Part shown: piece by piece, positions 7,798 through 45,496 of the stretch | How positions within the stretch are numbered: the first letter of the stretch is position 1 | Layout of the letters: every line of letters starts with the position of its first letter | NCBI GenBank assembly: GCA_963701185.1 | Contig: OY969569.1 | Location: 615,486-665,547, forward strand | DNA length: 50,062 nucleotides | Direction of reading: 5' to 3' | Source: Candidatus Gottesmanbacteria bacterium | Lineage (GTDB): Bacteria > Patescibacteriota > Microgenomatia > UBA10105 > UBA927 | The notes under the pieces: generated by a model | Database searches by the model: none | What the model was told of the DNA's origin: nothing | What the model saw: only the letters and a program-made list of their open reading frames with translations | Program-made: the position numbers and the translations under genes

Positions 7798-10700
7798 GGT
7801 GCTGTCTCCCCTGAACCCGTAGATTCCACTGTATCAGAATTATCCGGCGCAAGCGCGACCCAATTGAACCGGTACTCGTGCAGTGCCCCATCCGGAACCG
7901 TGATGCGGAAACCTTTTTCGGTGACATTGGTGATGAATGCGTTCTGCCCCTCGGAGCCGACGCGTGAGAACGTCACGACCGGCGGGGTATCGTAGGACGC
8001 AGGAAAAACCACATCAACGGCGTTGGTATCCTTGGCGATAATCGCCTGGCCTGCCGTACTGTTGTTGAAGATCGCGACTCCTTTCATGATGAGGTTTTTA
8101 TGGAATATCACCGTATCAAAATATTCAACAAGAGATCGGAAGAGTGCAGGACCCTGAAACCCGACGCCGGCCTTAAACGTCACCGCTCCCGTTGCCTCCA
8201 GTTGGTTGAGAGAGGTCAGCACGGGGATCGTGTTTCCTTTGTCGATGAGTGCCTGGACTCCGGCCAGGGCAATACCCGCCGTATCCAGGGCGGCCAGGTG
8301 GGTGGCATCCTCCCCGACCCCGAAGATTTCGTAGAATTTCTCTGCCGTGGGGCCGATGTGGGTGACCGTATCCGGATTGGCTTTGTAGTTCCACCGGGTA
8401 AGGGGAAGGCGTGAAATCTTGGTCAAGAGATCCGCAGGATCCACGGGGGTGAAGTTCTCTTTCAGGGCGATACTGGAGGTATTCTCCCAGACCCCGACAT
8501 TGGAGAGGTAGGCGCCGGTGCCGGTATCGATGGGTTTGACGGAAGAGACTGCCGTGCCGATCCCCACGTTGCCGGCAAAGTAGGCACTGCCCGTACTCGT
8601 GAGACTCCCCAGGACTGCTCCGGTGCTTCCCTGCCATTCCTGCAGGTTGGCGGTTTGGGACAGGGATCCTTTGACAATGAGGCCCTGGAGGGTAGAAAGT
8701 CCTGTATTGAGGGTGGTGGTACTTTCCACCGTCAGCTGGCCTAACCCGGTCAGGCTGTTTTGGACGGAGAATGTCGAGGCGAGATCAGAACTGCCCAGCA
8801 AGGCCAGATTGTCCAGGTACACGGTTTTCCCGGCATGGACGTACACGCCGTAGGGTTTGGCACTTGCTACCCCCGTGACCGTTGCCTTCATCCGATACCA
8901 CCCGCCCCCGACAGCCGTGTACGTGGTGGGAAGGATATTCGGGCCTGCAGAGAGTTCAGCGTCTGCCGCCGTGACCGCGCTCCCGGTCGTATAGATGGCG
9001 GCGGTGAGCGTATACGTATTGGTGTCCCCCACGTTGACGCTTTGGGAAAATGCCCCGCCGCTTACTGCCACGATTTTTGTACTTGCCGGGCTGCCGCCGT
9101 ACGTTGTCGCCGTATCACTCGTCACCGTCAGATTCGTATCCGGGATATCCGTATACTCTCCTCCCGTCCCCCGGGCCCACAGGGTAAAGTTGTCAAACGT
9201 ATTGCCGGAGTATGTCGAAAAAAGACCGTGTTTGGTATTGGTGTTGGCCGTCATCGTTAACTCTGCTCCTACAAGAGCATTGTTGTAGTAGACCCGCAGT
9301 TTAGTGCCGTCCCGGACGGCCCGAAGCGTCGCTCCGGCGACATAGGTCACGGCCGTAGATTGTTTGTTGGTATATACTCCGGCGACGGCTTCATCAACTT
9401 TGACACTTGTCCCATCGTGATACACAATGATGAAGTTGGCAGGGCGGCGGTACTATCCAAATTTAGCACTAGTCCCGCCTGTGTTCCGGCAGTCATAGTT
9501 ACATTAGCATCCGCCACCACATTACTGGTTCGCTGCGGGGACTGAAGGAGAAAAGGGTGGAGAGGGTGATGGGTTTAATTGAAACATCGTCAAATTGTGC
9601 TGTGCCATTTGTACCATCCCTGAGATATATAGGTTGAGGAATGGAAATAGAACGGGCGGAACGAATTTTTTGTGTCCAAGTAGAAGATGTGTTGTCTAAA
9701 TATGGATCTCCGTTAAACACAAGACAGGCATTAGTTCCGTCATAGACTTCTATTCCATGCATTTATTTGATACCATGCTCCAACAACTGTTGTTATATTC
9801 TGGAATTCCCGCTTGGGGAGTTACTGTTCCCCCATAAGCAATTTGAAGAGATTGTGTTCCTGCGCACCAGTATGTTCCGCTACGGTGGTTAAGACAGCAT
9901 TTCTATCAGCAGTCCAGCTGCTTGGTGGGTTACCTGTTTCCATGTTCCCATTTGTTAACATCTCACTCCCCAATGTCGGTGTGATAGTCATTACTCCACC
10001 GGCTTTGGTGCCACCTGTCCAGTTGACAGTTGGGGGTGGTTTGGCCATCCGGCCCGGTGCGCTCGGTAACTGTGGCCATCGGCAGATGAAAAAGTATCAT
10101 AGGCCAGAGGTGTCGGCAGCCAGGTGGTGGTGGGGATACGGATGTTATCAGCGGTACAATGCTGCAGTAGCACCACTCCAAGCGCTTACACCTGGGTACA
10201 TTGTTGAGGTTGCAGCAGTGGACTGAATGTATACGAGAGTCCAGTTAGTGTACGCACCGCCTTTTATATAGTAATAGGCGCCATTAGTTCGTAAAACTAC
10301 AGCTATTTTGTAGTTCGTAGCATAACTAAATGCTCCCAAAGAGGAACTATTATTGCCATTATCCGTGGCATATAATACTTCCAGTTTCACTAAAATAAAT
10401 ACCATTGGCTTGGACTCGTCCTGCACTGGCCATCATCAAAACCTAGACCAATTCTTCCCGACGAAGCAATATTAATGTCCAGATAAGACTGTCCTTCCGG
10501 CAGATCTTGTTATACTGGGCCACCAAATACCGGGATTACCATCACCTACAGTTGATCCTGAAACAGACAACTGGCCACCTGTTATAGACAGTAGGGAGGT
10601 TGTATCCACCACTGTCCTTGTTCCCCCCGTGGGTTCAGCTTGGGTGCCGTTGACACTGCCTGCGGCCCGGTCGGTCGTAAACTGGTCCTCCAGTACGTTC

Positions 10701-13700
10701 CCGTAGTCCCAGGAGGAGATCCCGGCATCAAAGGTCGGATTGGTAAACTTGTTGCCCGAGGAACCCGAAGGGATATCAATGGAGGCCGCGGCATCAGCGG
10801 TATAGCGCAGGGCCAACTTCGAGATACCGCCGGAGATAATCTTCAACGCTTCCGCTCCGGCGGCAGATTCTGCGGCAATCGTACCGGTGACCTGCAATTT
10901 TGACGTGGGTGCCGTAGTGCCGATGCCCACCAGGCCGGACGCGGTGATGCGCATCTGTTCCGTGGACCCGTTGGTGGTGAAAAGAAGGGCATTGTTCGTT
11001 TGCATCGTCAGATTGGTGGTACCGGAGAGAGAGTTCGTCGTACCCAGGGTGAGGGTCCCGGCCGTGGAGGTGAGGGTGCCGGAGGCTTTGATATTCCCGG
11101 TGACATCCAACACTTCCGAAGGCGCGGTGGAACCGATCCCCACCCGCCCGTTGGTGGTATCAATATCCAGAACTGCAGTTCCTGCTGCATTGTTGAACTG
11201 ATAGGCTGTCGTGGTATTGGTAGACCGGGAGAAGGTTAATCCGCCGAGGGCATCCACGGCTCCCAGGACGGTTCCGGATGAGCTCTGCCACTCCTGAAGG
11301 TTGGCGGATTGTCCGGAGAAGCCTTTGACAACGAGGGCCGGGAGGGAAGCAAGACCGGAGTTGAGGGTGGAGGTGGATTCCACACTCAGGCCTCCCAGAC
11401 CCGTGGTGGAGTTGGTAATGGCCAGGGTGGTATTAGGACCGCTTGTTGCATATAACGCGAAACTGTCAATATAGACGGTTTTGCCTGCATGAACTGACAC
11501 GCCGTAATTTTTGGCAGAGGCCACACCCGTCAGCGTTCCGGTTAACCGGTACCAGCCGCTGCCGACGGATGTAAATGTTGTGGCAATGGCCGACCCGTCG
11601 TAAAACAGATCCAGATCCGCAGTTGTCACGGCACTCCCGTCGGTGTAGGCGTAGGCGCTTACTGTATATACTGATGTGTCCGGCAATGTCACGGATTGGG
11701 CGTAGGCATTGTCGTTGGTGCCGGCAACCAGTTTGAGCGAGGCGGTTCCGGCATAGTGGACGGAGGTGTCCCGGGTGGCCGTAAGGCCCGTATCCGGAAT
11801 ATTTATATACTCATTCCCCGTCCCGCGGGCAAAGAGAGTGAAGTTGTCAAACGTGTTGCCAGAGTAGGTAGAGAATAATCCGTGTATGGTATTGGTGTTG
11901 GCCGTCATGGTTAATTCAGATCCGACCAGGGCATTGTTGTAATACACTCGTAGTTTGGTTCCTTCTCTAATGGCTCGGAGTGTGGCCCCAGCACTATATG
12001 TTACTGTCGTTGTTTGTTTGTTGGTATATACTCCGGCTACTGCCTCATCAACTAATACCTGCGTGCCATTATGGTATACCAGGATAAAGTTTGCCGGACT
12101 ACTTGTGGAATCTAAATTTAATACTAACCCAGCCTGAGTTCCTGCAGTTAAAGTTACATTTACATCAGCCACCACATTGGCAGTATTGGCTGGCACAGTG
12201 GAGAAGAGGGAGGAGAGGGTGAGGGGCGTAACTGATACATCGTCTGTTCTGGTCTCTTGGCCTAACGTTGACGACTGACTTTCTAGTTGTATATAATTGG
12301 TAGTTGAAAGTGAACGCCTTACTCCTAGTCCATAGGTCCATGATGTGCTGGCGATATTTGCAAATGTGAACCAATTTGTTCCGTCATAATAACGCAAAGC
12401 CATTGATGGAGCATTTATATTTTTAGCCCATCCAGATGCTTGATACCATGTTCCGTTTGATACAGATAACGTTTCTCTAGCGCTTGGATAATTACCGCCA
12501 TTATGGATAATTGACATTGATTTCGTCCCACTACCTCCAGTTCTTTCATCATTTACGCTAGATAGTGTGGCAAGATTGAGAACTGCCCAACCAGAAGGAG
12601 GATCACCAGTTTCCATATTCCCATTTGTCACCATCTCACTCCCCAATGTCGGTGTGATACTCAGAACTCCTCCCGCCACGGTTCCGCCGGTGAGGGCGAG
12701 GGCGGGGGTCGTTTGGGAATCAGGCCCGCTGGTTTCCGTCGTCGTTGCCCCCGGGGTGCCAAAAGTTGAGTATGCCAGGGGAGTAGGTAGCCAGGTGGTG
12801 GTGGGGATGCGGATGTTATCAGAGGTAAAGGCGCCATCATAATTTCCAATTGTGGGGTAAAGAGTACTTGTTGAATCTTCATTCCCTGTCCACAAGAGAG
12901 TCCAGTTAGTATATGCCCCACCTTTAATAAAGGTGAAACTACCAGTGCTTCGTAAAACAGTAGCAATGTTGTAAGTACTGTTTGAATAACTTCCAATACT
13001 TTCAGATGCATCGTGACCTGCAAATATTGTATTACTTGAGTGAAATGTCACGTAAGAATCTGAAGATAACTGAAAACCGTAATTTGGAGCTGAATTCGTT
13101 TTAAAACCGATTCTCTTGAACGTCCCTGTGTTAGGTGTTATTTGACTTACCATCATTTTGCCGGCAGATCTGGTTACTGAACCGTAGCGTATTCCCGGGT
13201 CGGCGTATCCACTTAATCCACCAGAAAAATTTAATACTCCACTTCCAATACTAACTTTGTTTGTGCTATCCACAACAGTTCTCACTCCTCCCGTCGGTTC
13301 GGCCGAAGTGCCGTCAAGGTTGGTGGTGATGAGGAAGTTGGTAAAGCTATTACTTGCGTACGTACTAAATAATCCCTGCAACGTGTTGTTGACAATACCT
13401 GCATCAGAAATCGTTTGATCAGCTCCGATTTGCGCGCCGTTGTAGATGAGTTTATAGACATTCCCTACTTTCGCTACTTTCAGCGTCGCTCCGGCAACAT
13501 AGGCAGCGGCGGTGTTAATGAGGGAGGTATATGTCCCCCCCACATTTTTATCCAGGTGAACACTGGTTCCGTCATGGTAGGCAATGACAAAGTTGGCGGG
13601 AGTACTGGCTGAATCCAGATTAAGAACCAGTCCTGCCTGTGTTCCTGCCGTCAGCGTCACCCCGGCAGAAATAATCTTATTCACCGTCGCCTCGGTGACT

Positions 13701-15875
13701 GTCGAGAAGAGGGAGGAGAGAGTGAGGGGTTTGACACTAAGATTATCAATCTCCATTAAATCACCCGCATTATTACCAACATAAATTCTAAGATTGGGAC
13801 CAGTTGCAGTTGTTCGGCCGGAAACGGTGAAATTAGCCCACAAACTACTTGTTGCGGGATATAGAGCAGGAACCATGTTCCCCCCATATATACCTGATGA
13901 AGAATGTCCCGTCCATTTTGCTGCGTAAGTTAGCATGAACCAAGTATTAGCTGTTGTTGTCCATGCCCAATATGCACTTCCACTCACACCTGACCCCGGA
14001 TAGGCAAGACGTATATTGTATGAACCGGTGTTTGGTGCACTTGCATCAGATGATAGTGTTGGAGCGGGAGACCCTTGAGAAAACCATCCGGTTGTTGCAT
14101 TTGCTTCATTTCCATTTGGATCGGAAGCTGCATTTGCGGTAGTATAAAATTCACTCCCCAGCGTTGGGGTAATCACGCCACTATTTGTCAGTGTTGAAAC
14201 GCCGGAGACCAGGGTCGTCGGGGCGGAGGTCGTGAATTGGTCATTGAGAGTGTAGCCGTTCCAGCCGGTCAGGTCGATTTCAAAACCGGTATTAGTCATG
14301 GTACTGGCAGACATATCAAGGGTTACCCCGGTACCCGTCCACTTCATCGCCAATTTGGCCGCATCGGCCGTATCCGTGAGTTTTAATCCTTCGACTCCGC
14401 TTGCGACTTTTGCGGCCATGTCCCCCACGACGGTGAGGGTATTGGCGGGAGCCGTGGTCCCGATACCCACACGGGAGTTTGTGGTATCAAACGAGAGAAT
14501 ATTGGATATATTTTTGGTCGTGAGGACCGCCGTATCAACCAGGGTGAGATTGCCGGTTGTATCAACCGAGGCCACGATGGTCCCGTTATGGCCGTAGATG
14601 GTTAAGGGGGTATCCGTGACCGGGGCATTCACGGCACCGGAATACCCCAAGACGATATCCCCATCCTCGTCCATCAGCGCTTTCTGATATCCGGCAATGG
14701 CAAAACCCAACAATTGGCCGTTGGCAACCGACGTCGTCGGATTAATGAGGACCGTTGCCTGGGTATTCGTTGTATCGGTGGGCGCATAGGAGAAGGTGGT
14801 CTGGCCGGAAAAAGCCTGGGAGGAATTGGAATTGATATTGGCAACCCACACGTTATCAAACCGCAGGGCATTGGACCCCAAATCACTGCCCAAATCCGTC
14901 CCGGGAAGAAGGGATTTTCCGTTGGTAATCGTCGCGTTTCCGAAGGTGAGGGTATCCATCACCACCGTGTCCGTGGTTGTCGTTAACCCGACCGTGGTTC
15001 CGGTTTTTGTCCAACCGGAGAGGGTGTAATCCGGGGTATCGGCATTGATGGTGAGCGTTTTCCCTGTTGCATCGGTGGTGAGGGTAATGCCCCCGCTTTG
15101 GACAACGGTGAGGGTGTCGGTATTACTTCCGGCGGCAACACTGGTTTGGCCGGATACCGCGATGGTTTTAAAGATATTCTGGGAGGTTCCCCGATCGCTG
15201 TTGGTCACTTTCAACCCGTCGACGGTCATGCCGCCTCCTGCAGTCAGGGAGAGGGCGCCGGTTGAGCCGCCCAGAGACAGGACACCGGTGTTGGTTACCG
15301 TCGGAGTCTGGCCGGTGGAGACACTCATCCCCGTTCCTGCCGTCAGTCCATAGAGGATATTGCCTGCCGTGACCCGGGAAAATGATCGCGGAGCTCTGGG
15401 CAGCCTGAACATCTCCGGAGATGATCAACCCGGTATCAAACGTTGCCGTGTCTTTAAACTCTGCCGGCACATGGACGGTGAAGATGAAACTGCCGGACCC
15501 GCTGGCAACGGTGTCGCCGAGGACCGTTGCGGGGGTTTCGACCGGGGGGATAGTATGTTTTATTCGTATCATCCCTCCACCAAGGAAGAGTAAAACAAGA
15601 CCAAGGGAAACAAGAATCACCTTTGTCATTCCCGGCTTGACCGGGAATCCGCCTTCTGTTTTCTTTACAACCAATACCGATCCCCGCCTTCGCGGGGATG
15701 ACAAACCGTGCGAGGCAGAATTTCTGAGTTCTTCGATCTGCTCCGGGGTATACCGGCGCTGGTTGCCGAAAGTCCGCTGCGGGATGACCCGCCCCGCCTC
15801 TTCCCACCTCCGAAGGGTTTTTGTGGAGATGCCGAGGATCCGCGCCGCATCGTAGATCGATAAAAGTTTTGTCAT
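7794..15875 (-). CDS. Giant protein B: MerR-HTH, TM, fibre/adhesin-like repeats, S74 chaperone; frame broken at about 15387 and repeatedly in 9425-10480
   Basis: ORF pieces 15168-15875, 10472-15412, 10148-10426, 9821-10048, 9499-9762 and 7794-9425 are collinear with the paralogues; total span 8082 nt is a multiple of 3; ATGA overlaps at both ends. Confidence 0.72.
8240..8477 (-). other. Peptidase S74 intramolecular chaperone domain (copy B)
   Basis: WENTSSIALKENFTPVDPADLLTKISRLPLTRWNYKANPDTVTHIGPTAEKFYEIFG. End boundary approximate. Confidence 0.82.
15009..15837. repeat. Near-identical repeat of 22149-22977 (MerR-HTH to start of fibre)
   Basis: Offset 7140 throughout, with only scattered substitutions. 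Confidence 0.9.
15390..15875 (-). other. MerR-type HTH plus TM N-terminal segment of giant protein B
   Basis: LLSIYDAARILGISTKTLRRWEEAGRVIPQRTFGNQRRYTPEQIEEL, then TM VILVSLGLVLLFLGGGMI and VLG motif. Confidence 0.85.
15624..15703 (-). repeat. TGTC-tagged REP doublet (80 bp) in frame inside giant gene B
   Basis: Minus strand TGTC-ATCCCCGC(GAAG)GCGGGGAT-spacer-ATTCCCGG(TCAAG)CCGGGAAT-GACA; translated as LSSPRRRGSVLVVKKTEGGFPVKPGMT. Confidence 0.9.
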
Positions 15876-18800
15876 GGAGTGCCTCCGAAGGGCGAAATAC
15901 TTTTTGTTGTCTTCATATCCGCAACCGCTACCGCGTTCCAGTTGTACAAATACTCCTGCATTGCGACGTCGGGGATAACGATGCGGAATCCTTTTTCCGA
16001 AACATTGGTCAAGTACGCCTTGTGTCCGTCCGAATCAATCGGTGAGAATGTCACGACGGGAGGCGTGTCATACGGCACGGCAAATGTCACATCAACCTGA
16101 CTTGTTGCCGTCGCCATTTTCGCCTGACCGACGGAATCTTTGTTAAATGACGGCGTCCCCTCAATGGTTACATTTTTGTCATAGGTCACCGCACTAAAGT
16201 ACTCAGTTAACGCCCGGAAAACCGCGGAACCGATAAATTCCGCATCCGCCCGGAACGTCACCGCTCCCGTTGCCTCCAGTTGGTTGAGAGAGGTCAGCAC
16301 GGGGATCGTGTTTCCTTTGTCGATGAGTGCCTGGACTCCGGCCAGGGCAATACCCGCCGTATCCAGGGCGGCCAGGTGGGTGGCATCCTCCCCGACCCCG
16401 AAGATTTCGTAGAATTTCTCTGCCGTGGGGCCGATGTGGGTGACCGTATCCGGATTGGCTTTGTAGTTCCACCGGGTAAGGGGAAGGCGTGCAATCTTGG
16501 TCAAGAGATCCGCAGGATCCACGGGGGTGAAGTTCTCTTTCAGGGCGATACTGGAGGTATTCTCCCAGACCCCGACATTGGAGAGGTAGGCTCCGGTGCC
16601 GGTATCGATGGGTTTGGTCGCAGAGACTGCCGTCCCGATCCCCACGTTGCCGGCAAAGTAGGCACTGCCCGTACTCGTGAGACTCCCCAGGACTGCTCCG
16701 GTGCTTCCCTGCCATTCCTGCAGGTTGGCGGTTTGGGACAGGGATCCTTTGACAATGAGGCCCTGGAGAGACGCAAGACCGGAGTTGAGGGTAGTTGTGG
16801 ATTCTACCGCCAACTGCCCCAGTCCCGTGAGGGTGTTTTGGATAGCAAGAGATGTGGTGGAAGAATCGGGAATGAGGGCAAAATCATCCAGGTACACGGT
16901 TTTCCCGGCATGGACGTACACGCCGTAGGCGCGGGCTGTCGCGACGCCAGTCACGGCGGCCTTTGCTCTATACCACCCGCCCCCGACAGCCGTGTACGTG
17001 GTGGGAAGCGGGCTTGCGCCGGCATACATCTGTGCGTCCGCCGACGTGACGGCACTCCCGTCCGTGTATATGACGGCGGTGAGACCATACGTATTGGTGT
17101 CCCCCACGTTGACGCTTTGGGAAAATGCCCCGCCGCTTACTGCCACGATTTTTGTTGACCCCGCCGAGTTTCCGTATGTCGTTGTCGTATCCCGCGTCAC
17201 CGTCAGATTCGTATCCGGGATATCCGTATACTCTCCTCCGGTCCCCCTTGCAAACAGCGTAAAGTTGTCAAAGGTGTTACCGGAGTAGGTAGAGAACAGA
17301 CCGTGTTTGGTGTTAGATATTATTCCTGCATCGGATACTGTCTGTTCCGTGCCAATCAAAACATTGTTGTAGTACACCCGCACTTTCAGGGCTCCTCCGG
17401 AAGTGGAGGTGATCACTCTCAAAGTAGCTCCTGCCGAATAAGTAGCTGCTGTATTTATTAAAGATGTATATGTTCCCCCAACATTTTTATCCAGTTTGAC
17501 ATTGGTTCCGTCATGGTAGGCAATCAGGAAGTTGGCAGGAGAGCTTGTTGAATCCAAATTCGTTACCAGTCCTGCCTGAGTCCCAGCCGTCAAAGTCACA
17601 TTAGCATCGGCAACGACATCAGTATCAGAGGTGGGGACAGTGGAGAAGAGAGAGGAGAGGGTAAGTTGTTTAAAAGAAGCATCGTCAACTATCACCGCAT
17701 CAAAATTTGAAGTGCCTCTTTCTTGAGCAGGATAAAAATTGGTTGAGTTTCCAGCTGTCCGGCCGGTTTTTAAATATTGGGTATATGAAGATGCTGTGAT
17801 GTACCCCAAAGTTGTTGTCCCCACTGTTAATTCTGTCACATCTGCGGATACTGTCCCGCCGGAACCGGAAGTCCTTTTAGCCCACACATATCCCTGCCAC
17901 CATCCCGCGGTTGGAGAAAAGGCGGGAAATCTAAGACCGTTCCATTGGGCAACTCCTGTAAAAGCTTGGGCTTTGCTTCCCCCATGGACATCCGCACTTT
18001 GAGAAACTGTTGGGCTTCCGATTTTGGTGAGGTTGTCATTTAAACCGCTGGTGTAGTTTCCCTCTAACCCCGGATCGGTTAAAATTTCAGCTCCTGTTGT
18101 GGGGGTAATCACCACTTTATTTCCACTTATTGCCCCTCCTGTCCAGGCTAAAGAGGGTGTAGTTTGGGAGTCCGGGCCGGTGGTTTCGGAAGATCCAATC
18201 GCCCCATCCCCACGGGTAAACGTATCATATGCCAGCGGTGTCGGGAGCCAGGTGGAGGTAGGGATTTTAATATAATCAAATGAACTAGCTAGATTATTAG
18301 TAAATATACTTGGGGTTAGTGAGGCATTTGTTCCAATGTCTGATTTCCAAATAAACGTCCAATTTCCGGAAGTGGGTTTAAAAAATAAATAAGCACCAGT
18401 CGAACGCAATATTATAACCACTGTGCCGCTCTGGCCATCATAAAAAGATATTTGTGGAAAGCCCCCACTCCAACCTTTTAATTTATTGTCGATAATATAA
18501 CTTTGATATCCATTTGTGGCGTTCCATCCGGCAACATAATAATTTGCAGGACTACCGTTACTAAAAGTGGGGAATATCAACATTTTTCCAGCAGCCCTGG
18601 TAACCGATGGGTATGTTATCGTTGGATTACCTGTTGTGCCTCCCGTTGCGAAACTCAACTGTCCGCCGGTAATACTTAACTTGCTATTGGTATCCACCAC
18701 CGTTCTTATTCCCCCCGTGGGTTCCGCTTGGGTACCGTTGACGGCTCCGGCGGCGCGGTCAGTGGTGAACTGGTCCTCCAAAGCATTGCCATAATCCCAC

Positions 18801-21800
18801 CCGGTTAAATTCGATTCAAACGTATAATTGGTGAATTTATTCGCGGAACTTACGGATTGCACATCAATAAATCCTGTGGAACCGGCTCCATACCCCAATG
18901 CCAGCGTATTGTTTCCGGAAAGAATTTTTAGCGCGGCGGCCCCGGCTCCCGCCTCTGCAGCTATCGTTCCCGTCACCTGCAATTTTGACGTGGGTGCCGT
19001 AGTGCCGATCCCCACCAGGCCGGACGCGGTGATGCGCATCTGTTCCGTGGACCCGTTGGTGGTGAAAAGAAGGGCATTGTTCGTTTGCATCGTCAGATTG
19101 GTGGTACCGGAGAGAGAGTTCGTCGTCCCCAGGGTGAGGGTCCCGGCCGTGGAGGTGAGGGTGCCGGAGGCTTTGATATTCCCGGTGACATCCAACACTT
19201 CCGAAGGCGCGGTGGAACCGATCCCCACCCGCCCGTTGGTGGTATCAATATCCAGAACTGCAGTTCCTGCTGCATTGTTGAACTGATAGGCTGTCGTGGT
19301 ATTGGTAGACCGGGAGAAGGTTAATCCGCCGAGGGCATCCACGGCTCCCAGGACGGTTCCGGATGAGCTCTGCCACTCCTGAAGGTTGGCGGATTGTCCG
19401 GAGAAGCCTTTGACAACGAGGGCCGGGAGGGAAGCAAGACCGGAGTTGAGGGTGGAGGTGGATTCCACACTCAGGCCTCCCAGACCCGTGGTGGAGTTGG
19501 TAATGGCCAGGGTGGTACCGGCGCCGGAGGAACTGAAGAGGGCCAGATTATCCACGTAGACGGTCTTCCCTGCTTTGACCCGGACCCCGTAGTTTTTGGC
19601 ACTTGTCACCCCGGTGAGAGTGGAGGAGAGTTTGTACCAGCCATTGCCCGCGGACGTATAGGTGGTGGTCAGGGCGGTGGCGGACACATCACTGAAGAGC
19701 TCGACATCCGCCGAGGTGACCGCCGCACCGGTCGTATATGCGTAGGCGGTGAGGTTGTAGGAAGACGTATCCGGCAGGGTGACACGTTGGGTGTAGGCAT
19801 TGTCGTTGGTGCCGGCAACCAGTTTGAGCGAGGCGGTTCCGGCATATGGTATGGTTGTATCGCGTGTTGCCGTCAGATCCACATCCGGCAGCCCGGTGGT
19901 ATATTCCCCTCCCGTCCCCCGGGCAAAGAGGGTAAAGTTGTCAAAGGTGTTACCGGAGTAAGTGGAGAAGAGTCCGTGGAGGGTGTTGTTGATTATCCCT
20001 GCATCCGTGACTGTTTGCTCAGTTCCAACCAATGCGTTGTTGTAATACACTCTGACTTTTAGAGTATTAGCATCGGAGTGGTAGGTGATGACTCTTAGGG
20101 TTGCTCCTGCCGAATAAGTAGCCGCCGTATTTATCAAACTGGTATATGTTCCCCCAACATTTTTATCCAGTTTGACATTGGTTCCGTCATGGTAGGCAAT
20201 CAGGAAGTTGGCAGGAGAGCTTGTTGAATCCAAATTCGTTACCAGTCCTGCCTGAGTCCCAGCAGTCATAGTTACATTCACATCCGCAATCACATCAGCA
20301 TCAGAAGTGGGTACTGTGGAGAAAAGGGAGGAGAGGGTAAGAGGTCTATATGAAATATTGTCGATTGTTCCGTTCCAAGAATTGGAATAAACGCCTATGC
20401 TAGTTTGACTAGCTCTTAATGTATTTGTATAAGAGCCAGGCGTGTTTCGAGCAATAGTGTTTGCACCCGCGTATGTCCATATGAATTGCCCTACTTCTAA
20501 TACTAAATCAAAACCAGCTTGGTACCAATTATTAATAGTCCCAACTGATTGCGTTAGAAGACCAGCATTCCCGTTGTTGGATGCAACTCCACCTGAAATC
20601 GTCCACCCAGTTCCTTTAGCCCAGCTCGTATCAGTGTCAAAAGTGCCATTGATAATAACATCACTTCCCAGTGTCGGGGTGATAGTCATTACTCCACCGG
20701 CTTTGGTGCCACCCGTCCAGGTTAATTGGGGAGTAGTTTGAGAATCCGGGCCAGTGGTTTCGGTAGCGGTTGCCCCGGCAGTAGTAAACGTATCATATGC
20801 CAGAGGGGTGGGGAGCCAGGTGGAGGTGGGGATACGGATGTTGTCAATATTGAGGTCGTAATTACCAGTTACCCCAGCATATAAATTGGAAGTGTTGCCT
20901 ATAAAATCAGTATATAATAATGTCCAATTAGGATATTCTGTTCCGCCCTTTATAACAAAATATGTACCTGAACTTTTTAGAATTACCGCTAATTTATAAG
21001 TAACATTAAAAGTATATGTTCCTAGAGGAGTAGCATTGGCTGTTTGAATCACGCTTGAGTTGCCACGTAAATAAAAACCGCTTTGCAAGGTATTGGATTG
21101 AGCCGTAGTAAATCCAATCTTTACATCTTTAAAAGCAGAAACAAGTTCTTTATAATCAAAAATTGCTATCTTTCCAGCTGCTCTTGTTGTGACTGGATAC
21201 CATAACCCGGGATCACCCAGCCCTACTCCACCAGTTGCAAAGACTGCTACACCACCAGAAATTGACAGCTTGGAGTTGGTATCCACCACCGTTCTCACCC
21301 CTCCCGTGGGTTCGGCGGGGGTGCCGTTGACACTGCCGGCTGCACGGGCGGTGGTAAACTGGTCCAACAGGGTATTGGTGTTCCACCCGCCGGTCGTAAT
21401 ATCCGTGTCAAAGGTGCCGTTGGTCAGCTTGTTGACGGATGCGGCTCCCGGGACATCCAGTGTTGCTCCCGATCCCGTCCACTTCATCGCCAGTTTGGTC
21501 GCATCAGACGTATCCGTAAGTTTAAGACCCTCGACTCCGCTTGCGACTTTTGCGGCCATGTCCCCCACGACGGTGAGGGTAGTGGCGGGAGCCGTAGTCC
21601 CGATACCCACACGGGAGTTTGTGGTATCCAGAGAGAGAATATTGGATATATTTTTGGTCGTGAGGACCGCCGTATCAACCAGGGTGAGATTGCCGGTTGT
21701 ATCAACCGAGGCCACGATGGTTCCGTTATGGCCGTAGATAGTTAAGGGGGTATCCGTGACCGGAGCATTCACGGCATCCGAATACCCCAAGACGATATCC

Positions 21801-23030
21801 CCATCCTCGTCCATCAGCGCTTTCTGATATCCGGCAATGGCAAACGCAAGGAGCTGTCCGTTAGCAGTCGAGGTGGTGGGATTGATAATCACCGACGCCT
21901 GCGAGAGTGTCGTATCGGTGGGCGCATAGGAGAAGGTGGTCTGGCCGGAAAAAGCCTGGGAGGAATTGGAATTGATATTGGCAACCCAGAGATTATTAAA
22001 CCGTTTGCCCGCGGACCCCAAATCACTGCCCAAATCCGTATCAGGCAGAAGATTATGGCCATTGGTAATGGTTGCACCCCCGAACGTGATTCCGTCTACC
22101 ACGACCGCATCCGTCAGTGTCGTGAGACCCACGCTGGTACCGCCGTCTGTCCAACCGGAGAGGGTGTAATCCGGGGTATCGGCATTGATGGTGAGCGTTT
22201 TCCCTGTTGCGTCGGTGGTGAGGGTAATGCCCCCGCTTTGGACAACGGTGAGGGTGTCGGTATTACTTCCGGCGGCAACACTGGTTTGGCCGGACACGGC
22301 GATGGTTTTAAAGATATTCTGGGAGGTTCCCCGATCGCTGTTGGTCACTTTCAACCCGTCGACGGTCATGCCGCCTCCTGCAGTCAGGGAGAGGGCGCCG
22401 GTTGAGCCGCCCAGAGACAGGACACCGGTGTTGGTTACCGTCGGAGTCTGGCCGGTGGAGACACTCATCCCCGTTCCTGCCGTCAGTCCATAGAGGATAT
22501 TGCCTGCCGTGACCCGGGAAAATGATTGCGGAGCTCTGGGCAGCCTGAACATCTCCGGAGATGATCAACCCGGTATCAAACGTTGCCGTGTCTTTAAACT
22601 CTGCCGGCACATGGACGGTGAAGATGAAACTGCCGGACCCGCTGGCAACGGTGTCGCCGAGGACCGTTGCGGGGGTTTCGACCGGGGGGATAGTATGTTT
22701 TATTCGTATCATCCCTCCACCAAGGAAGAGTAAAACAAGACCAAGGGAAACAAGAATCACCTTTGTCATTCCCGGCTTGACCGGGAATCCGCCTTCTGTT
22801 TTCTTTACAACCAATACCGATCCCCGCCTTCGCGGGGATGACAAACCGTGCGAGGCAGAATTTCTGAGTTCTTCGATCTGCTCCGGGGTATACCGGCGCT
22901 GGTTGCCGAAGGTCCGCTGCGGGATGACCCGCCCCGCCTCTTCCCACCTCCGAAGGGTTTTTGTGGAGATGCCGAGGGTTTCGGCGGCATCCTGAATGGA
23001 GAGAAGCGTATCGACAGTATATGAATTCAT
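15872..23030 (-). CDS. Giant protein A: MerR-HTH, TM, fibre/adhesin-like repeats, S74 chaperone (about 2385 aa if the single +1 break near 22527 is removed)
   Basis: ORF 22308-23030 (HTH, TM) overlaps ORF 15872-22552 (2226 aa, intact); the junction aligns to the unbroken N-terminus of paralogue C. Confidence 0.8.
16320..16555 (-). other. Peptidase S74 intramolecular chaperone domain (copy A)
   Basis: WENTSSIALKENFTPVDPADLLTKIARLPLTRWNYK..HIGPTAEKF. End boundary approximate. Confidence 0.82.
22530..23030 (-). other. MerR-type HTH plus TM N-terminal segment of giant protein A
   Basis: LLSIQDAAETLGISTKTLRRWEEAGRVIPQRTFGNQRRY, then the same TM helix as copy B. Confidence 0.85.
22764..22843 (-). 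repeat. TGTC-tagged REP doublet (80 bp) in frame inside giant gene A
   Basis: Same sequence as 15624-15703. Confidence 0.9.
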
Positions 23031-23926: not shown

Positions 23927-24002
23927 TGTCATTCCCGCGTAGGCGGGAATCGGTATTGGTTTTATTGAAGAAGGCGGATTCCCGGTCAAGCCGGAAATGA
24001 CA
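23927..24002 (+). repeat. TGTC-tagged REP doublet (76 bp)
   Basis: TGTC-ATTCCCGC(GTAG)GCGGGAAT-CGGTATTGGTTTTATTGAAGAAGGCGG-ATTCCCGG(TCAAG)CCGGAAAT-GACA. Confidence 0.9.
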
Positions 24003-24010
24003 AGAAAATC

Positions 24011-24352
24011 ATGCTCCGTCATTATTATGTATACATAATGGCAAATAATAGACCGACGTTATATGTCGGTGTAACAAATAGTATTGAAAGAAGATCAGTT
24101 CAACATAAATATAAATTTATCGATGGGTTTACAAAAAAATATAATCTTTCAAAACTTGTATATTTTGAACATTATACTGATGTAAAAGAAGCGATCAAAC
24201 GGGAAAAACAATTGAAACATTGGAATCGGAGTTGGAAATTAAATTTGATACAAAAGATGAATCCTGCATTTGAGGATTTATATGATAAGCTGATATTAGG
24301 CGGGATAAAACAGAAGGCGGATCCCCGCCTTCGCGGGGATGACAAGCAATAA
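24011..24352 (+). CDS. GIY-YIG nuclease family protein (small stand-alone UPF0213-like type)
   Basis: YYVYIMAN..TLYVGVTNSIERR..QHK..FTKKYNLSKLVYFE..AIKREKQLKHWNRSWKLNLIQKMNP; the last codons DPRLRGDDK are the REP hairpin. Confidence 0.9.
   Translation: MLRHYYVYIMANNRPTLYVGVTNSIERRSVQHKYKFIDGFTKKYNLSKLVYFEHYTDVKEAIKREKQLKHWNRSWKLNLIQKMNPAFEDLYDKLILGGIKQKADPRLRGDDKQ
24307..24344 (+). repeat. Single REP hairpin with linker at right end of the GIY-YIG cassette
   Basis: AAAACAGAAGGCGG-ATCCCCGC(CTTC)GCGGGGAT-GACA. Confidence 0.88.
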
Positions 24353-24354
24353 TT

Positions 24355-25790
24355 ATGATTCACAGTTTTGATTTTTGCGTTAAAGAAACACATGATGTCG
24401 GCGAGGTCGTGCAGGTACATAGCTTCCTTGTGAGCGTATCGGGTTTGACCGGCGGGACAATCGGCGAAGGGGTCACCTTTGAAACCGGAGCCCACGGCCG
24501 CATCATGGCCCTTGCCCGGTCAACCACCGAAATCCTCGTCCTGTCACGCTCCATCATGAAACCCGGTACGCGGTGTTCCCGAACAGGCAAACTTATCTCC
24601 GTTTCCTGCGGAACCGGGCTCTTGGGAGAAGTCATCAACAGCATGGGGCACCTTCTGTCCACCGATAAAGCTGCCAGCCGTGAAACCGAGAACCGCCCGA
24701 TCGAAGCGTCCCCCGTCGGCATGACGGGCAGAATGCCGGTCGACACGTTTTTGGAAACCGGCATTGCCGCGATTGACTGCATTGTCCCCATCGGCCGCGG
24801 CCAGCGGGAACTGGTGATCGGCGACCGGACCACCGGCAAAACGCATGCGCTGCTGCAAATTGTAGCCACACAGGCGAAGATGGGTACGGTGTGTATCTGG
24901 GCGGCAATCGGAAAACGGAAGTCGGATATCAAAGCAGTCGAAACATTTTTAACACAAAACGGGGCCATGAAAAACACGCTGATTGTCGCCGCTGATTCGT
25001 ATGCGGCGCCGGGCGAAATATTTTTAGCGCCGTACACCGCCATGACACTCGCTGAGTATTTCCGGGATACGGGAAAAGACGTGCTGTTGGTTTTGGACGA
25101 CCTGACCACCCATGCAAAATATTACCGTGAAATTTCCCTCCTGTCCGGCCAATTTCCCGGGCGCGAATCCTACCCGGGGGATATTTTTCACGTTCATTCG
25201 AAACTGCTGGAACGCGCCGGATCGTTTGACATCCATAAAAAGCCGGTCACCATCACATGTCTGCCTGTTGCCGAAAGCGCCGGCGGCGACATGGTCGGGT
25301 ATATCCAAACCAACCTCATGTCCATGACCGACGGGCATCTGTACTTTGACAGCGACATGTATTTTCGCGGGATCCGTCCGGCCCTTAACGTCTTTTTATC
25401 CGTGACGCGCGTGGGCCGGCAAACCCAAACGCCGCTCCTTCGGGATATCGGCAAAACCGCCCTGTCGACGCTCAAAAAATATGAAAATGCGCAGAGCTTC
25501 CTCCGGTTCGGGCCGGATATCTCCCCCCAACTCCAGGAAGTTATCAAACTGGGAGATCACATTACCGCATTTTTAGATCAAACCGGATCATGGAGCATGG
25601 CGGATTCTTTAGCATCGGTGTTATTTGCCCTTATCACCGTGCACGCGTGGGACGGGACAAACGGCCGGGGTATCGCGGAGCGTTTTGACAAAGACGCAGC
25701 ATTTCAAACAACAATCCGGAGCCTGGCTGCCCGCGCCACATCGCTTGAAACACTCACGGCCGCAGTACAAAAGGCCAAACTAACAGTCAT

Positions 25791-25794
<4 letters not shown>
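24355..25794 (+). CDS. atpA: F1 ATPase alpha subunit, divergent, shortened at N- and C-termini
   Basis: GRGQRELVIGDRTTGKT, YREISLL..PGRESYPGDIF..HSKLLERA, TNLMSMTDGH, RPALNVFLSVTRVG. Confidence 0.92.
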
Positions 25795-28015
<2,221 letters not shown>

Positions 28016-33749: not shown

Positions 33750-34805
33750 CTATTTTCTTGCGACTGTCCTTTTATATAGGTCTATATTTTCCAGCGCAAC
33801 TCCGGTCCCCCGCACAACGCAGAGCAAAGGGTCTTCCGACACATGACAGACAACGCCGGTCATGTGGGTCATGAGTTTGTCAAAATTCCGAAGGAGACTT
33901 GTGCCGCCCGCCATGACAATCCCCTTGTCAATAATATCTGCGGCCAATTCCGGCGGCGTTTCTTCAAGGACTCCTTTCACCGCAACGATGATTTGGTGCA
34001 GGGTCGGGGTAATGGCTTCTGAAATTTCACCGCTCGTAAGTTCCACCATGCGCGGCAACCCCGACACCGTATCCCTGCCGCGGACCTCCATAGATGTCAT
34101 CCCCGACTTGATCGGGGATCCGCCGATTCCCGCCTTCGCGGGAATGACAACCGGGAGAGCATCTCCTATGGTCATTTTTATCGTCTCTGCCATCCGTTCC
34201 CCGATAATCAGGTTATATTTTTTCTTGATGTAATTGAATATCGCCTCATCCAGTTTGTTGCCCGCCACCCGTGCGCTCTTGTGAACGACGACCCCGCCCA
34301 GGGATATCACCGCGGCCTCCGTTGACCCGCCGCCGACATCAACAATCATGTGTCCCGAGGCCTGGGCGATGGGAATTTTGGCGCCGATGGCTGCCGCAAG
34401 CGGCTCTTCGATAAGATACGCAACATTGGCGCCGGCAGAGAGCGTGGCATCCAGAACTGCCCGGCGCTCGACCTGGGTGACGCCGGACGGCACGCAGATC
34501 ATGACTTCGGGTTTAAAAATACGGTTGCGGCCGACTACTTTATCGATAAAGAAGGAAAGCATTGCCTCGGTAATCCGGTAATCGGCAATCACGCCGTCGC
34601 GCATCGGACGCGTCGCCATGATATTGCCGGGGGTCCGCCCCAGCATTTCCTTGGCCTCGTTGCCCACGGCCACCACGCGGCCGTCATCCAGGGTTATGGC
34701 CACCACCGTCGGCTCGTTGACGACAACACCCGAGCCCGCCAGCCACACGAGGGAATTTGCCGTCCCTAAATCTATGCCGATTCTTTTACGCCACTTGTTA
34801 AACAT
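33750..34805 (-). CDS. mreB: Rod shape-determining protein MreB/Mbl with in-frame REP insertion
   Basis: IGIDLGTAN, RPMRDGVIAD, EEPLAAAIGA, VDVGGGSTE, AGGTSLL. Confidence 0.96.
   Translation of the reverse strand: MFNKWRKRIGIDLGTANSLVWLAGSGVVVNEPTVVAITLDDGRVVAVGNEAKEMLGRTPGNIMATRPMRDGVIADYRITEAMLSFFIDKVVGRNRIFKPEVMICVPSGVTQVERRAVLDATLSAGANVAYLIEEPLAAAIGAKIPIAQASGHMIVDVGGGSTEAAVISLGGVVVHKSARVAGNKLDEAIFNYIKKKYNLIIGERMAETIKMTIGDALPVVIPAKAGIGGSPIKSGMTSMEVRGRDTVSGLPRMVELTSGEISEAITPTLHQIIVAVKGVLEETPPELAADIIDKGIVMAGGTSLLRNFDKLMTHMTGVVCHVSEDPLLCVVRGTGVALENIDLYKRTVARK
34095..34149 (-). repeat. TGTC-tagged REP doublet (55 bp, minimal spacer) inside mreB
   Basis: TGTC-ATTCCCGC(GAAG)GCGGGAAT-CGGCGG-ATCCCCGA(TCAAG)TCGGGGAT-GACA; reads VIPAKAGIGGSPIKSGMT. 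Confidence 0.9.
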
Positions 34806-43639: not shown

Positions 43640-45496
43640 CTAGTCCCGTTTTAACACTTCAAAGAATGCCTCCTGGGGAATCTCGACCCGGCCGATGAGT
43701 TTCATTCTCGCCTTGCCTTTTTTCTGTTTTTTCAGGAGTTTATCTTTGCGCGTGCGGTCGCCGCCGTAGAGCTTCTGGATGACGTCTTTGCGGAACGCCT
43801 TGACATCCGAGCGTGCCACGACTTTGCCGCCGATTGCCGCCTGTATGGGCACCTCAAACTGATGGCGCGGAATGACGGCGGCCAGCCGCTCGGTAATTTC
43901 GATACTGCGCGTATGCGCCTGATCGCGGACCACGAGAAATGACAGCGCGTCGACTTTTTCGCGGTTGACGAGAATATCGATCTTCGCGACATCTACCGTC
44001 TGATAGTCGAAAAATTCGTAATCGAGGCTGGCGTAGCCCTCGGTAATGCTTTTCAATCTGTCAAAAAAATCAATAATCATCTCGGAAAGCGGAATACGAT
44101 AGGTAAACTCTACTTGGTCTGCCGTATATTTTTGGTCCACATACGTCCCCCGCTTTTCCTGCGCCAATTGCATAATGGGCCCAACGTACCGCTTCGGCGT
44201 GTAAATCGTGACTTCCATAATCGGCTCTTTCACCTCTTCAATAACCGTGGGGTCCGGAAATTCCGACGCCGATTGGATAAAAACCTCTACCCCCGATGTT
44301 TTTTTCAGATGATATTCGACCGAAGGCGCCGTCGCGATCATGTTGAGGTCAAATTCGCGGGACAACCGCTCCTGCACGATTTCCGCGTGGAGTAACCCCA
44401 AAAATCCGCAGTGGAAGCCGTTGCCCAGAGCCAGTGACGAAATCGGCCGGAAGGTGAACGCGCTGTCGGAGAGCCGCAATTTTTCCATCGTCTCCCGGGC
44501 GTAACTAAACTCTTCGCTGTTTATGGGAAACAAACTTAAAAACACCATGGGCTTGGGTTCTTTGTAGCCCGGAAGCGATGATACATTTTCTGTAGAAATT
44601 GTATCCCCGACCTTGGCAAATCGTACATCCTTAAGACCCGTTGCAATATACCCCACTTCTCCCGCAGACAATTTTTCCCCGTTGCCGATTGTGTGCATAT
44701 GAGGAAGAAAATACCCCATCTCGATAGGCGTTACGGAGGCGCCGGATGCCATAAACTGGAGCCGGGTGGACGAAGTAAACGGAATCTCCCCGTCGACAAC
44801 CCGCACAAACACGACGACGCCTTTATGTGCGTCATATTGCGAGGAAAAAATTAACGCGCGGGGTGGTTTTTCCGGATCTCCTTTTGGTGGAGAAATTTTT
44901 TCAACAATCGCCTCTAAAACTGCTGCGACGTTTTCTCCTGTTTTGGCGGAAATCTTTATTATGTCTTCTTTTCTAAATCCCAGACTCTCAAGCTCTTGTA
45001 TTGTTTCTTCTATCCGTGCTGTCGGCATGTCTATTTTATTGATAATCGGAATAATGGTGAGACCGTGAGAGCGCGCCTGATGGAGATTTGCCAGCGTCTG
45101 GGCCTGCACACCCTGGGTTGCGTCCACCACCAAGAGCGCGCCCTCACAGGCCGCAAGCGACCGGGATACCTCGTAGCCGAAATCGACATGACCGGGGGTA
45201 TCGATGAGATTTAATACAAAAGTGTCATTCTCGCGAAGGCGAGAATCGGTTTTGGTATTCGGAGAAAAGGCGGATCCCCGATCAGGTCGGGGATGACAAC
45301 GGTAAATCATCCGGACAGGTGCGAGTTTAATGGTAATCCCCCGTTCCCGTTCAATGGGATTGCTGTCGAGGATTTGCGGCCGGCAGTCGCGGTGCGCGAT
45401 TGTCCCCGTCACCTCGAGAAGCCGATCTGCCAGCGTCGATTTTCCATGGTCAATGTGCGCCACGATTGCAAAATTACGGATATGTGATTGATCCAT
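43640..45496 (-). CDS. lepA: Elongation factor 4 (LepA) with in-frame REP insertion
   Basis: IVAHIDHGKSTLADR, ERERGITIK, LIDTPGHVDF, NKID, GFLGLLH, C-terminal KQKKGKARMK. Confidence 0.97.
   Translation of the reverse strand: MDQSHIRNFAIVAHIDHGKSTLADRLLEVTGTIAHRDCRPQILDSNPIERERGITIKLAPVRMIYRCHPRPDRGSAFSPNTKTDSRLRENDTFVLNLIDTPGHVDFGYEVSRSLAACEGALLVVDATQGVQAQTLANLHQARSHGLTIIPIINKIDMPTARIEETIQELESLGFRKEDIIKISAKTGENVAAVLEAIVEKISPPKGDPEKPPRALIFSSQYDAHKGVVVFVRVVDGEIPFTSSTRLQFMASGASVTPIEMGYFLPHMHTIGNGEKLSAGEVGYIATGLKDVRFAKVGDTISTENVSSLPGYKEPKPMVFLSLFPINSEEFSYARETMEKLRLSDSAFTFRPISSLALGNGFHCGFLGLLHAEIVQERLSREFDLNMIATAPSVEYHLKKTSGVEVFIQSASEFPDPTVIEEVKEPIMEVTIYTPKRYVGPIMQLAQEKRGTYVDQKYTADQVEFTYRIPLSEMIIDFFDRLKSITEGYASLDYEFFDYQTVDVAKIDILVNREKVDALSFLVVRDQAHTRSIEITERLAAVIPRHQFEVPIQAAIGGKVVARSDVKAFRKDVIQKLYGGDRTRKDKLLKKQKKGKARMKLIGRVEIPQEAFFEVLKRD
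45223..45298 (+). repeat. TGTC-tagged REP doublet (76 bp) antisense inside lepA
   Basis: TGTC-ATTCTCGC(GAAG)GCGAGAAT-CGGTTTTGGTATTCGGAGAAAAGGCGG-ATCCCCGA(TCAGG)TCGGGGAT-GACA. Confidence 0.9.

Follow-up and report, generated by a model that had tools for sequence, protein, structure and literature searches.

The window analysed here is a stretch of 50,062 nucleotides (C1:615486-665547) from the closed 995-kb genome (47.7% GC) of a Candidatus Gottesmanbacteria bacterium. It contains two copies of an 80-bp unit made of two hairpins whose heads point outward, referred to here as a doublet. Hairpins of the same family, called SRMs (Ssn-related motifs), bracket a nearby cassette that carries a gene of the ssn type, predicted to encode a small GIY-YIG nuclease. 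The 80-bp unit is probably a gene-less form of such an ssn cassette, that is, an outward-facing SRM pair whose coding body was lost by internal deletion. Support for this reading is as follows: doublets carry both ends and both subterminal segments of a complete cassette, their left and right ends are paired with a fixed polarity, and partially deleted intermediates occur in this genome and in a relative.

Structure of the doublet and of the neighbouring cassette

The doublets and the cassette comprise the following features (window coordinates; L, left; R, right; ORF, open reading frame; HTH, helix-turn-helix; TM, transmembrane).

22764..22843 (genome 638249-638328), minus strand: SRM doublet copy 2, in frame in an HTH-TM ORF
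Parts of copy 2, minus strand: L hairpin 22843-22820; L word CGGTATTGGTT 22819-22809; GTAAAG; R word AAAACAGAAGGCGG 22802-22789; R hairpin 22788-22764
15624..15703, minus strand: SRM doublet copy 1, same sequence as copy 2, duplicated along with its host gene
23927..24003, plus strand: left end of the cassette, itself a doublet, with L hairpin 23928-23951, L word 23951-23961, and an extra R-type word and hairpin at about 23962-24003
24011..24352, plus strand: ssn-type gene, 113 aa, single-domain GIY-YIG
24307..24344, plus strand: right end of the cassette, with R word AAAACAGAAGGCGG 24307-24320 and R hairpin ATCCCCGCCTTCGCGGGGATGACA 24321-24344

The copies at 15624-15703 and 22764-22843 were identical at 80 of 80 positions in a script check. 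On the coding (minus) strand the unit reads TGTCATCCCCGCGAAGGCGGGGAT-CGGTATTGGTT-GTAAAG-AAAACAGAAGGCGG-ATTCCCGGTCAAGCCGGGAATGACA and folds as two hairpins closed by TTTGTCAT/ATGACAAA ends (DNA z-score -5.1). The hairpin pattern had 5 matches in the window versus 0.1 in shuffles, and the doublet had no match to a known RNA family in Rfam.

The preliminary description of this DNA had pointed to sequences shared by the doublet and the cassette, and a script check reproduced them exactly. The first spacer word of the doublet, CGGTATTGGTT, equals 23951-23961, and the last spacer word, AAAACAGAAGGCGG, equals 24307-24320. The first 24 nt of the doublet are the exact reverse complement of 24321-24344, the right hairpin of the cassette. 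The doublet is also, as had been stated, translated in frame between the HTH and the TM helix. It contributes 27 residues, LSSPRRRGSVLVVKKTEGGFPVKPGMT, after a MerR/HTH_17 domain (residues 11-57) and before the hydrophobic stretch VILVSLGLVLLFLGGGMI.

These word matches are not due to chance. The 11-mer of the left word has 10 occurrences across the 995 kb (0.47 expected), of which 8 directly adjoin a GTCAT hairpin. The 14-mer of the right word occurs exactly 3 times (0.007 expected) and is private to the two doublets in the HTH-TM genes and the right end of the neighbouring cassette. A loop variant of the right hairpin, GGCTTGACC, is likewise confined within this genome to the two HTH doublets and the neighbouring cassette. 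The HTH doublet has all its parts in common with the neighbour: it agrees in its left hairpin (24/24, with the neighbour's right hairpin), left word (11/11) and right word (14/14), and the hairpin at its right is the same as the extra one at the left end of the neighbour. This pattern points to close kinship or local exchange between the HTH doublet and the neighbouring cassette.

The 113-aa gene of the cassette appears to be an intact Ssn-type gene for a putative nuclease. PF01541 spans residues 5-78 of 113, and the protein keeps all 21 columns (Y8, Y18, G20, R28, H32, E65, N84 and others) that are invariant in a 15-sequence cross-phylum alignment of homologues. The homologues are 86-130 aa long, mostly 94-97 aa, and the C-terminal tail ADPRLRGDDKQ, which lies beyond this usual length, is a read-through of the right hairpin. 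The protein had no match in NCBIfam, and the nearest solved structure was a weak match, UPF0213 BH0048 (1zg2). A second, distant GIY-YIG ORF (99 aa, 37% identical) is located at genome 385955-386194; a pattern search found no GTCAT hairpin near it.

Immediately after the cassette lie an atpA-like (479 aa) and an atpG-like (281 aa) gene (24355-26636) that have no same-genus orthologue. The best matches of the atpA-like gene in same-genus genomes were the canonical atpA genes (34-39%). Because the downstream atpA-like gene lacks an orthologue, the cassette locus is not conserved, and an empty cassette site was not found in same-genus genomes. The cassette region, together with the genes for giant surface proteins described below, may be an accessory island.

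Complete cassettes and partially deleted intermediates

A clean cassette is present in G005, a genome of the same genus. It consists of a left hairpin, CGGTATTGGTATTAATTGT, an ATG followed by a gene 81% identical to the ssn-type gene of the window, AAAAGTCAG, and a right hairpin; its ends read GTCATTCCCGCGTAGGCGGGAATC-GGTATTGGTATTAATTGT-ATG ... GGTGGAGGTAAAATAAAAGTCAG-ATCCTCGCCTGCGCGAGGATGAC. This layout places the left word just before the start codon and makes the right word the 3' end of the ORF, whose reading frame continues into the right hairpin. Doublets hold exactly these two subterminal segments and none of the coding body, and their left-right polarity is the same as in the full G005 cassette.

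The left hairpin of the neighbouring cassette (23928-23951) is identical to that of G005. Compared with G005, the neighbour has about 50 nt added between the left word and the ATG (23962-24010), consisting of an R-type word, a hairpin and AAGAAAATC. With this addition its left end resembles a doublet. The neighbour is therefore a composite (doublet, gene and right end) and not a clean unit of left end, gene and right end. The extra hairpin in its 5' leader also indicates that single hairpin units can be added alone.

Further evidence comes from elements in which the gene has been lost in part. A 130-bp relic at genome 577566-577695 (minus strand) contains the left hairpin, the left word, the ATG, three ORF fragments (RLRHYYVY / FIKGFTH / WKLNLIQKVNPK) and half of the right hairpin. 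In G005 a second ssn (G005:C21, L115, 5400-5800, minus strand) lacks its first 24 codons, which include the GIY motif, and keeps the right hairpin; the truncated gene is preceded by a single GTCAT...ATGAC hairpin.

Cassettes of this type extend beyond the genus. Homologues of ssn were found in 54 of 61 related genomes, often in multiple copies and sometimes with stop codons. In 27 of 28 related loci across the class, the gene is bracketed by a TGTCAT-hairpin on one side and a hairpin-ATGACA on the other, with stems that match within a locus and differ between genomes. The 28 loci were not re-oriented, so that upstream and downstream sides are mixed in the alignments; the bracketing is unaffected by this.

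The hairpin family across the genome

A pattern search combined with inspection of the context found about 31 GTCAT hairpins in the genome, which form 12 doublets with heads outward (53-78 nt) and 9 singles. Their loops are of two types, CGCG-AAG-GCG and GAYCWGRTC, each of which is found at left and at right ends. Inner flanks come in two kinds, and each hairpin carries one of them: the left word, ATC-GGTATTGGT(T/A)TT, or the right word, which is A-rich and, read toward the hairpin, ends in G(G/T)C(G/A)G-AT. A left end was paired with a right end in 11 of 11 informative doublets, for which the probability under random pairing is 0.0005. The twelfth doublet, in mreB, has just CGGCGG between its hairpins. 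The nine single hairpins each have an L-type or an R-type flank and no partner.

When all copies in the genome were compared, the left word was present in most of them. The preliminary description had named the occurrence of the spacer words in most copies regardless of any nuclease gene as a finding that would speak against a derivative of the cassette, and formally this is what was found for the left word. It does not refute the deletion idea, because a relation like that of MITEs (miniature inverted-repeat transposable elements) predicts exactly this distribution. Several doublets share the junction TTT(T)-(C/T)GGAGAAA-(A/C)G(G/C)CGG, which is also found in the genomes G002 and G004. Because of this shared junction, most doublets of the genus probably descend from one gene-less ancestor that multiplied, and not from many separate deletions.

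The elements are clustered. Between 335 and 815 kb, in one replichore by GC skew, lie 18 of the 21 elements, and 8 elements lie within 40 kb of ssn (5 of the 18 independent ones; p about 0.01). The singles show no strand bias: all nine are in one replichore, 5 versus 4 by strand, with the GC skew placing the origin near 815 kb and the terminus near 335 kb. Seven of the 12 doublets lie in frame within long ORFs (the two HTH copies, tgt, mreB, lepA, argS and leuS), and doublets occur at five intergenic sites. One single hairpin lies inside a 234-aa ORF.

The number of hairpins follows the gene. Across 10 genus and family genomes, intact hairpins numbered 31 (this genome), 9 (G005) and 10 (G007) where a close ssn is present; in those that lack it the numbers were 5, 2, 1, 0, 0, 0 and 0.

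Filled and empty sites in conserved genes

Two sister doublets lie in the window, both in frame.

45224..45297, plus strand: doublet in lepA (ORF 43640-45496), in frame, antisense
34096..34148, minus strand: doublet in mreB (ORF 33750-34805), minimal, spacer CGGCGG, in frame, read as VIPAKAGIGGSPIKSGMT

The lepA site is empty in other genomes of the genus. Five same-genus genomes read ...TAC-AAA-GAT-TAT-GTT... in an alignment, and the sixth, G006, is empty as judged from adjacent coordinates of a split match. The sequence here is TAC-CGT-[TGTCAT...AATGAC]-ACT-TTT-GTA, a clean addition of 75 nt in which the target is not duplicated. G040, which belongs to a different family, carries at that lepA codon a doublet built from its own SRM type, and G009 and G039 have unrelated simple-repeat inserts in the same loop. 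Target specificity as an explanation of the recurrent insertion in lepA was not accepted, as the simple repeats of G009 and G039 make tolerance of the loop sufficient.

The leuS doublet is unique to this genome; the site is empty in G001 and G003 (alignment) and in G002, G005 and G007 (match coordinates), and the loop carries other inserts in G004 and G009. The insert of G009 (L053) is an unrelated in-frame palindrome, CCCCCGAGGTG ... CACCTCGGGGG, so a second kind of hairpin insert uses the same permissive leuS loop. The tgt doublet is also present in G002, at the same codon and with 2 changes in 75 nt, and as a decayed relic in G004; the site is empty in G003 and G006, and in G001 by match coordinates. 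In mreB, a longer doublet with the usual words is present in G004, decayed doublets in G002, G005 and G006, and none in G001, G003 and G009. A GC-rich palindrome of about 66 nt is nested in the left-hairpin loop of the G004 mreB doublet (L087, G004:C39, about 1408-1500). The folD gene of G002 has its own in-frame doublet (L099, G002:C5:30643-30717), read as LSSPRRRGSAFIGEYQNRFPVKPGMT; a counterpart was not found in this genome.

The unit is thus polymorphic for presence and absence at orthologous sites in lepA, leuS, tgt and mreB. These comparisons, together with folD, indicate that units have come and gone over the time that separates species of the genus, and that they can persist and decay as coding sequence.

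The host gene of the 80-nt doublet and its duplication

The host genes and the duplication that contains them are as follows.

22308..23030, minus strand: host ORF copy 2, 240 aa, with MerR/HTH_17, then the 27 aa encoded by the doublet, then a TM helix
15168..15875, minus strand: host ORF copy 1, 235 aa, architecture as in copy 2
14315..15837 versus 21455-22977, no strand assigned: segmental duplication of 1.5 kb, with the HTH-TM gene, the doublet and the 5' end of a giant gene

The duplication is 93% identical overall and 99-100% identical over its last ~830 nt (15009 to 15837). Because both 80-nt copies lie within this recent segmental duplication, they represent one insertion and not two independent ones. 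A special conservation of the doublet between the two HTH copies was rejected, since identity is just as high over the ~830 nt that flank it.

In relatives the homologous HTH forms the N-terminus of giant ORFs of 1,700-4,000 aa, which comprise the HTH, a variable linker, a membrane helix and a very large extracellular part. No HTH-TM orthologue with an empty site was found in 60 relatives: the matches were about 27% identical, at the level of paralogous N-termini of giant ORFs with unrelated Pro-rich linkers. A search of 5.8 billion proteins for an HTH-TM orthologue gave one match, to the HTH only.

In relatives, the HTH, TM and giant parts form a single ORF, and the same is true of a 4,086-aa paralogue (genome 677.7 kb). 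In the window, both HTH-TM ORFs are one base out of frame with the giant ORFs 15872-22552 and 10472-15412, the shift lying near CATTTTCCCGGG (22500-22552 and 15360-15412, minus strand); beyond about residue 165, the tail of copy 2 is in another frame than the giant ORF 15872-22552. A third paralogue (window ~7530-7760, near 7,700) is continuous and has no HTH. The one-base frame change may mark a pseudogene, a phase-variable or slippery site, or an error in a homopolymer.

Comparison with known systems

The closest known system is Ssn of Neisseria. In Neisseria meningitidis the protein is SsnA, which has 94 aa, consists of a single GIY-YIG domain and belongs to CDD cd10448 (Chenal et al., Nat Commun 2025, PMC11893778). 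Its target is NTS, an oriented hairpin (CGTCATTCCCGCGMAVGCGGGAATCYRG), which SsnA binds solely as single-stranded DNA, cutting 3 nt upstream of it. Cleavage of single-stranded DNA just 5' of the motif, and of neither dsDNA nor RNA, is known for the Neisseria and Wolbachia homologues only (PMC11893778). Related motifs are present on both sides of 42% of Ssn homologues, and 2% of NTS lie within genes in N. meningitidis (PMC11893778). The arrangement NTS-ssnA-NTS was likened to an insertion sequence and to REP/RAYT; mobility was not shown, and doublets were not called derivatives of the cassette (PMC11893778).

The system in this genome resembles Ssn/SRM in having a single-domain GIY-YIG protein of about 95 aa, a GTCAT hairpin core, a hairpin-gene-hairpin arrangement, many gene-less copies, and co-occurrence of gene and hairpins. 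The hairpins flank the ssn-type gene with heads outward (23928-23951 and 24321-24344), as they also do in G005. The hairpin core GTCATTCCCGCGAAGGCGGGAATC fits the 24 core positions of the NTS consensus, which is that of Neisseria; the base before the core is T and not C, and the 3' flank is GG, CG or TG and not YR. The present system differs from Neisseria Ssn in that there are about 31 hairpins and not hundreds, the host is a bacterium of the candidate phyla radiation, and 7 of the 12 pairs, along with at least one single hairpin, lie within genes and are translated. Unlike in the published Ssn systems, the pairs have a fixed L/R polarity, share subterminal words of 11-20 nt with the cassette, and are accompanied by gene-deletion relics.

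Hairpin pairs around short spacers have long been known in Neisseria as NIMEs (dRS3-RS-dRS3; PMC1797815). Like a NIME, a doublet has two inverted 20-bp hairpins of the ATTCCC-N8-GGGAAT type around a short, AT-richer spacer, and the hairpins appear to be of the same family. Many hairpins of this genome are exactly ATTCCC-N8-GGGAAT, and the HTH copy has the variants ATCCCC-N8-GGGGAT and ATTCCC-N9-GGGAAT. NIMEs, in contrast, are intergenic and form long arrays with more than 100 spacer families, whereas the units described here are isolated, have one polar spacer family and often lie in coding sequence.

The preliminary description had used the term REP for the doublets. This is a misnomer, because the RAYT-like gene of the genome has another palindrome. 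The hairpin-nuclease pairing is that of the published Ssn/SRM system. The likeness to REPIN/RAYT lies in the dispersed inverted hairpin doublets, in a single-copy enzyme gene flanked by the same hairpins, and in recognition that is presumed to be single-stranded. The difference is that the enzyme here is a hydrolytic GIY-YIG and not a Y1 transposase with a covalent intermediate. MITEs provide a further parallel, in that terminal inverted repeats and subterminal words are shared with a coding partner, partial-ORF intermediates exist, and insertions are polymorphic. They differ in that there is no target-site duplication here and the partner encodes no known transposase.

Palindromes within protein genes also have a precedent. 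Rickettsia palindromic elements (RPEs) were reportedly described by Ogata et al. in 2000 as selfish palindromes residing in frame in protein genes. Doublets are like RPEs in being in-frame palindromes that are tolerated in surface loops of housekeeping proteins and kept, or decaying, as coding sequence; they differ in sequence family and size. We know of no nuclease partner defined for RPEs. RPEs are mentioned in PMC10969869.

Probable origin and proposed movement of the doublets

It is fairly likely, in view of the shared ends and the intermediates, that a cassette lost its gene by internal deletion and so founded the doublet lineage. The change probably ran in this direction, with cassettes losing the gene and not a gene entering a doublet. 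The preliminary description, which had called the unit an internally deleted GIY-YIG cassette derived from the neighbouring one, is borne out in the first part by the two ends and subterminal segments, the 11/11 polarity and the intermediates. The second part does not hold to the same degree, since the mosaic of swapped hairpins leaves descent from the neighbour unestablished; direct descent of the HTH doublet from the neighbouring copy is conceivable but doubtful.

How would such a unit have reached its present site? In the proposed model, the unit would have entered the linker between the HTH and the membrane helix, the N-terminal module of a giant surface protein gene. It would have survived there because its length is a multiple of three, it has no stop codon in frame, and the linker is disordered. 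The 1.5-kb duplication would later have copied the insert together with its host. The presence and absence of sister copies, together with the co-occurrence of hairpins and gene, suggest that doublets are moved in trans by Ssn. The resident Ssn would recognise both outward hairpins when they are extruded on single-stranded DNA, and would nick just outside each 5' end, one nick per strand. Nicking would then stimulate copying, loss or exchange of the unit via host replication and repair. That recognition and nicking by Ssn act in this way is a tentative proposal. In a genome that is mostly coding, only in-frame, stop-free inserts in loops and linkers would survive, which would account for insertion in the HTH linker, at the turn in lepA, and in loops of leuS, tgt and mreB. 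The 27 added residues may well be neutral.

Several observations weigh against parts of this account. G002 has intact doublets and no close ssn was found in this 87%-complete genome. The boundaries of the elements here do not fall at the point where the Neisseria enzyme cuts, 3 nt outside its 28-nt motif. No direct repeat that could be a target-site duplication flanks any of the 12 doublets. Hairpin types move freely between left and right ends, which indicates frequent recombination between copies and blurs descent. One deletion in the present neighbour would not yield the HTH doublet, whose hairpins are at the opposite ends and which has six extra bases, GTAAAG. Insertion at the HTH site itself rests on the behaviour of the sister copies, as no orthologue is close enough to show the linker without the 80 nt. 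In G007, which belongs to a second genus, the doublet spacer is unlike the subterminal sequences of that genome's own cassette; the evidence from the words is therefore limited to the genus studied here. Finally, we know of no enzymology for the reinsertion step, and a hydrolytic GIY-YIG enzyme cannot alone rejoin DNA. No strand-transfer activity is known to us for the GIY-YIG nuclease family.

Some of these observations would fit a different history, in which the pairs were never cassettes. Single SRMs with extended flanks would have spread or recombined by themselves and become juxtaposed as in NIMEs, the words would be part of an extended recognition sequence of the nuclease, and ssn would just be located, or have landed, between such repeats. 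The nine unpaired singles with an L- or R-type flank, the solo R-type hairpin inserted in the neighbour's 5' leader relative to G005, the exchange of hairpin types between ends, the spacer of the G007 doublet, and the documented existence of NIME-type units (PMC1797815) all agree with it. It is nevertheless unlikely. It leaves without a ready explanation that every one of the 11 informative doublets joins a left to a right end, in the orientation to the gene that full cassettes show, and that relics hold ORF fragments between their ends; moreover, the words, at 11-20 nt, greatly exceed the 3-4 flanking bases on which the Neisseria enzyme depends.

It is very improbable that the doublets are REPINs moved by a RAYT-like HUH (Y1) transposase, with only an incidental link to GIY-YIG. 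Such a protein, with an HFHLL motif, is indeed encoded in the genome, and the geometry of the doublets is REPIN-like. The gene, however, carries and is flanked by a different palindrome with its own small family, no GTCAT hairpin lies within 50 kb of it, and GTCAT hairpins bracket the GIY-YIG gene in 27/28 loci across the class. A role of the RAYT as driver of the doublets was rejected on account of the different palindrome. The RAYT-like gene is located at genome 337799-338540 (minus strand), and its 23-nt palindrome, CCTGCAAGGACTCTCCTTGCAGG, which is translated as LQGESLQV, has roughly 8-16 related copies genome-wide.

There is hardly more to recommend explaining the linker as normal coding sequence, as a hairpin with a regulatory or terminator role, or as an artefact of assembly caused by repeats, even though such hairpins can confuse assemblers and the HTH copy has no orthologue for comparison: the same unit of 53-78 nt recurs at five intergenic sites and, in frame, in five housekeeping genes unrelated to one another, two genomes that were assembled separately share the tgt copy, Rfam gave no match, and a terminator inside an intact ORF is implausible. 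A 191-nt contig from one public run also matches 22726-22916 without a difference, and the contig may stem from the source sample. The same run otherwise contained only hairpins of other organisms and is uninformative on absence alleles.

Ssn cassettes and doublets could be the autonomous and non-autonomous members of a class of mobile elements without a transposase, in which a nuclease of about 95 aa that is specific for single-stranded DNA nicks next to extruded GTCAT hairpins and host replication or repair copies or pastes the element precisely (TGTCAT...ATGACA) with no duplication of the target. This is a possibility put forward with reserve. If it is true, the genus offers a natural series that runs from the full cassette of G005 through the composite in the window, the 5'-deleted gene of G005:C21, the triple-deleted relic at 577 kb and the doublets of 74-78 nt to the 53-nt doublet of mreB.

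Significance

The pairing of hairpin and nuclease was already published; useful additions here are the polarity, the natural intermediates, the exact empty sites and the essential genes that harbour the unit in frame. Two questions followed from the 2025 description of Ssn: which role the nuclease and its hairpins have outside Neisseria, and whether the hairpin-gene-hairpin unit is mobile. This genome and its genus provide concrete material on the question of mobility in the form of polar ends, intermediates, filled and empty sites, and hairpin counts that follow the gene. Comparing occupied with unoccupied sites in conserved genes fixes the limits of the inserted unit with a precision of one base. 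Ssn-type hairpins can also become part of essential proteins, as in Tgt, MreB, LepA, ArgRS and LeuRS, and in FolD of a relative. This is relevant to the annotation of proteomes of the candidate phyla radiation and to how "insertions" in their conserved proteins are read.

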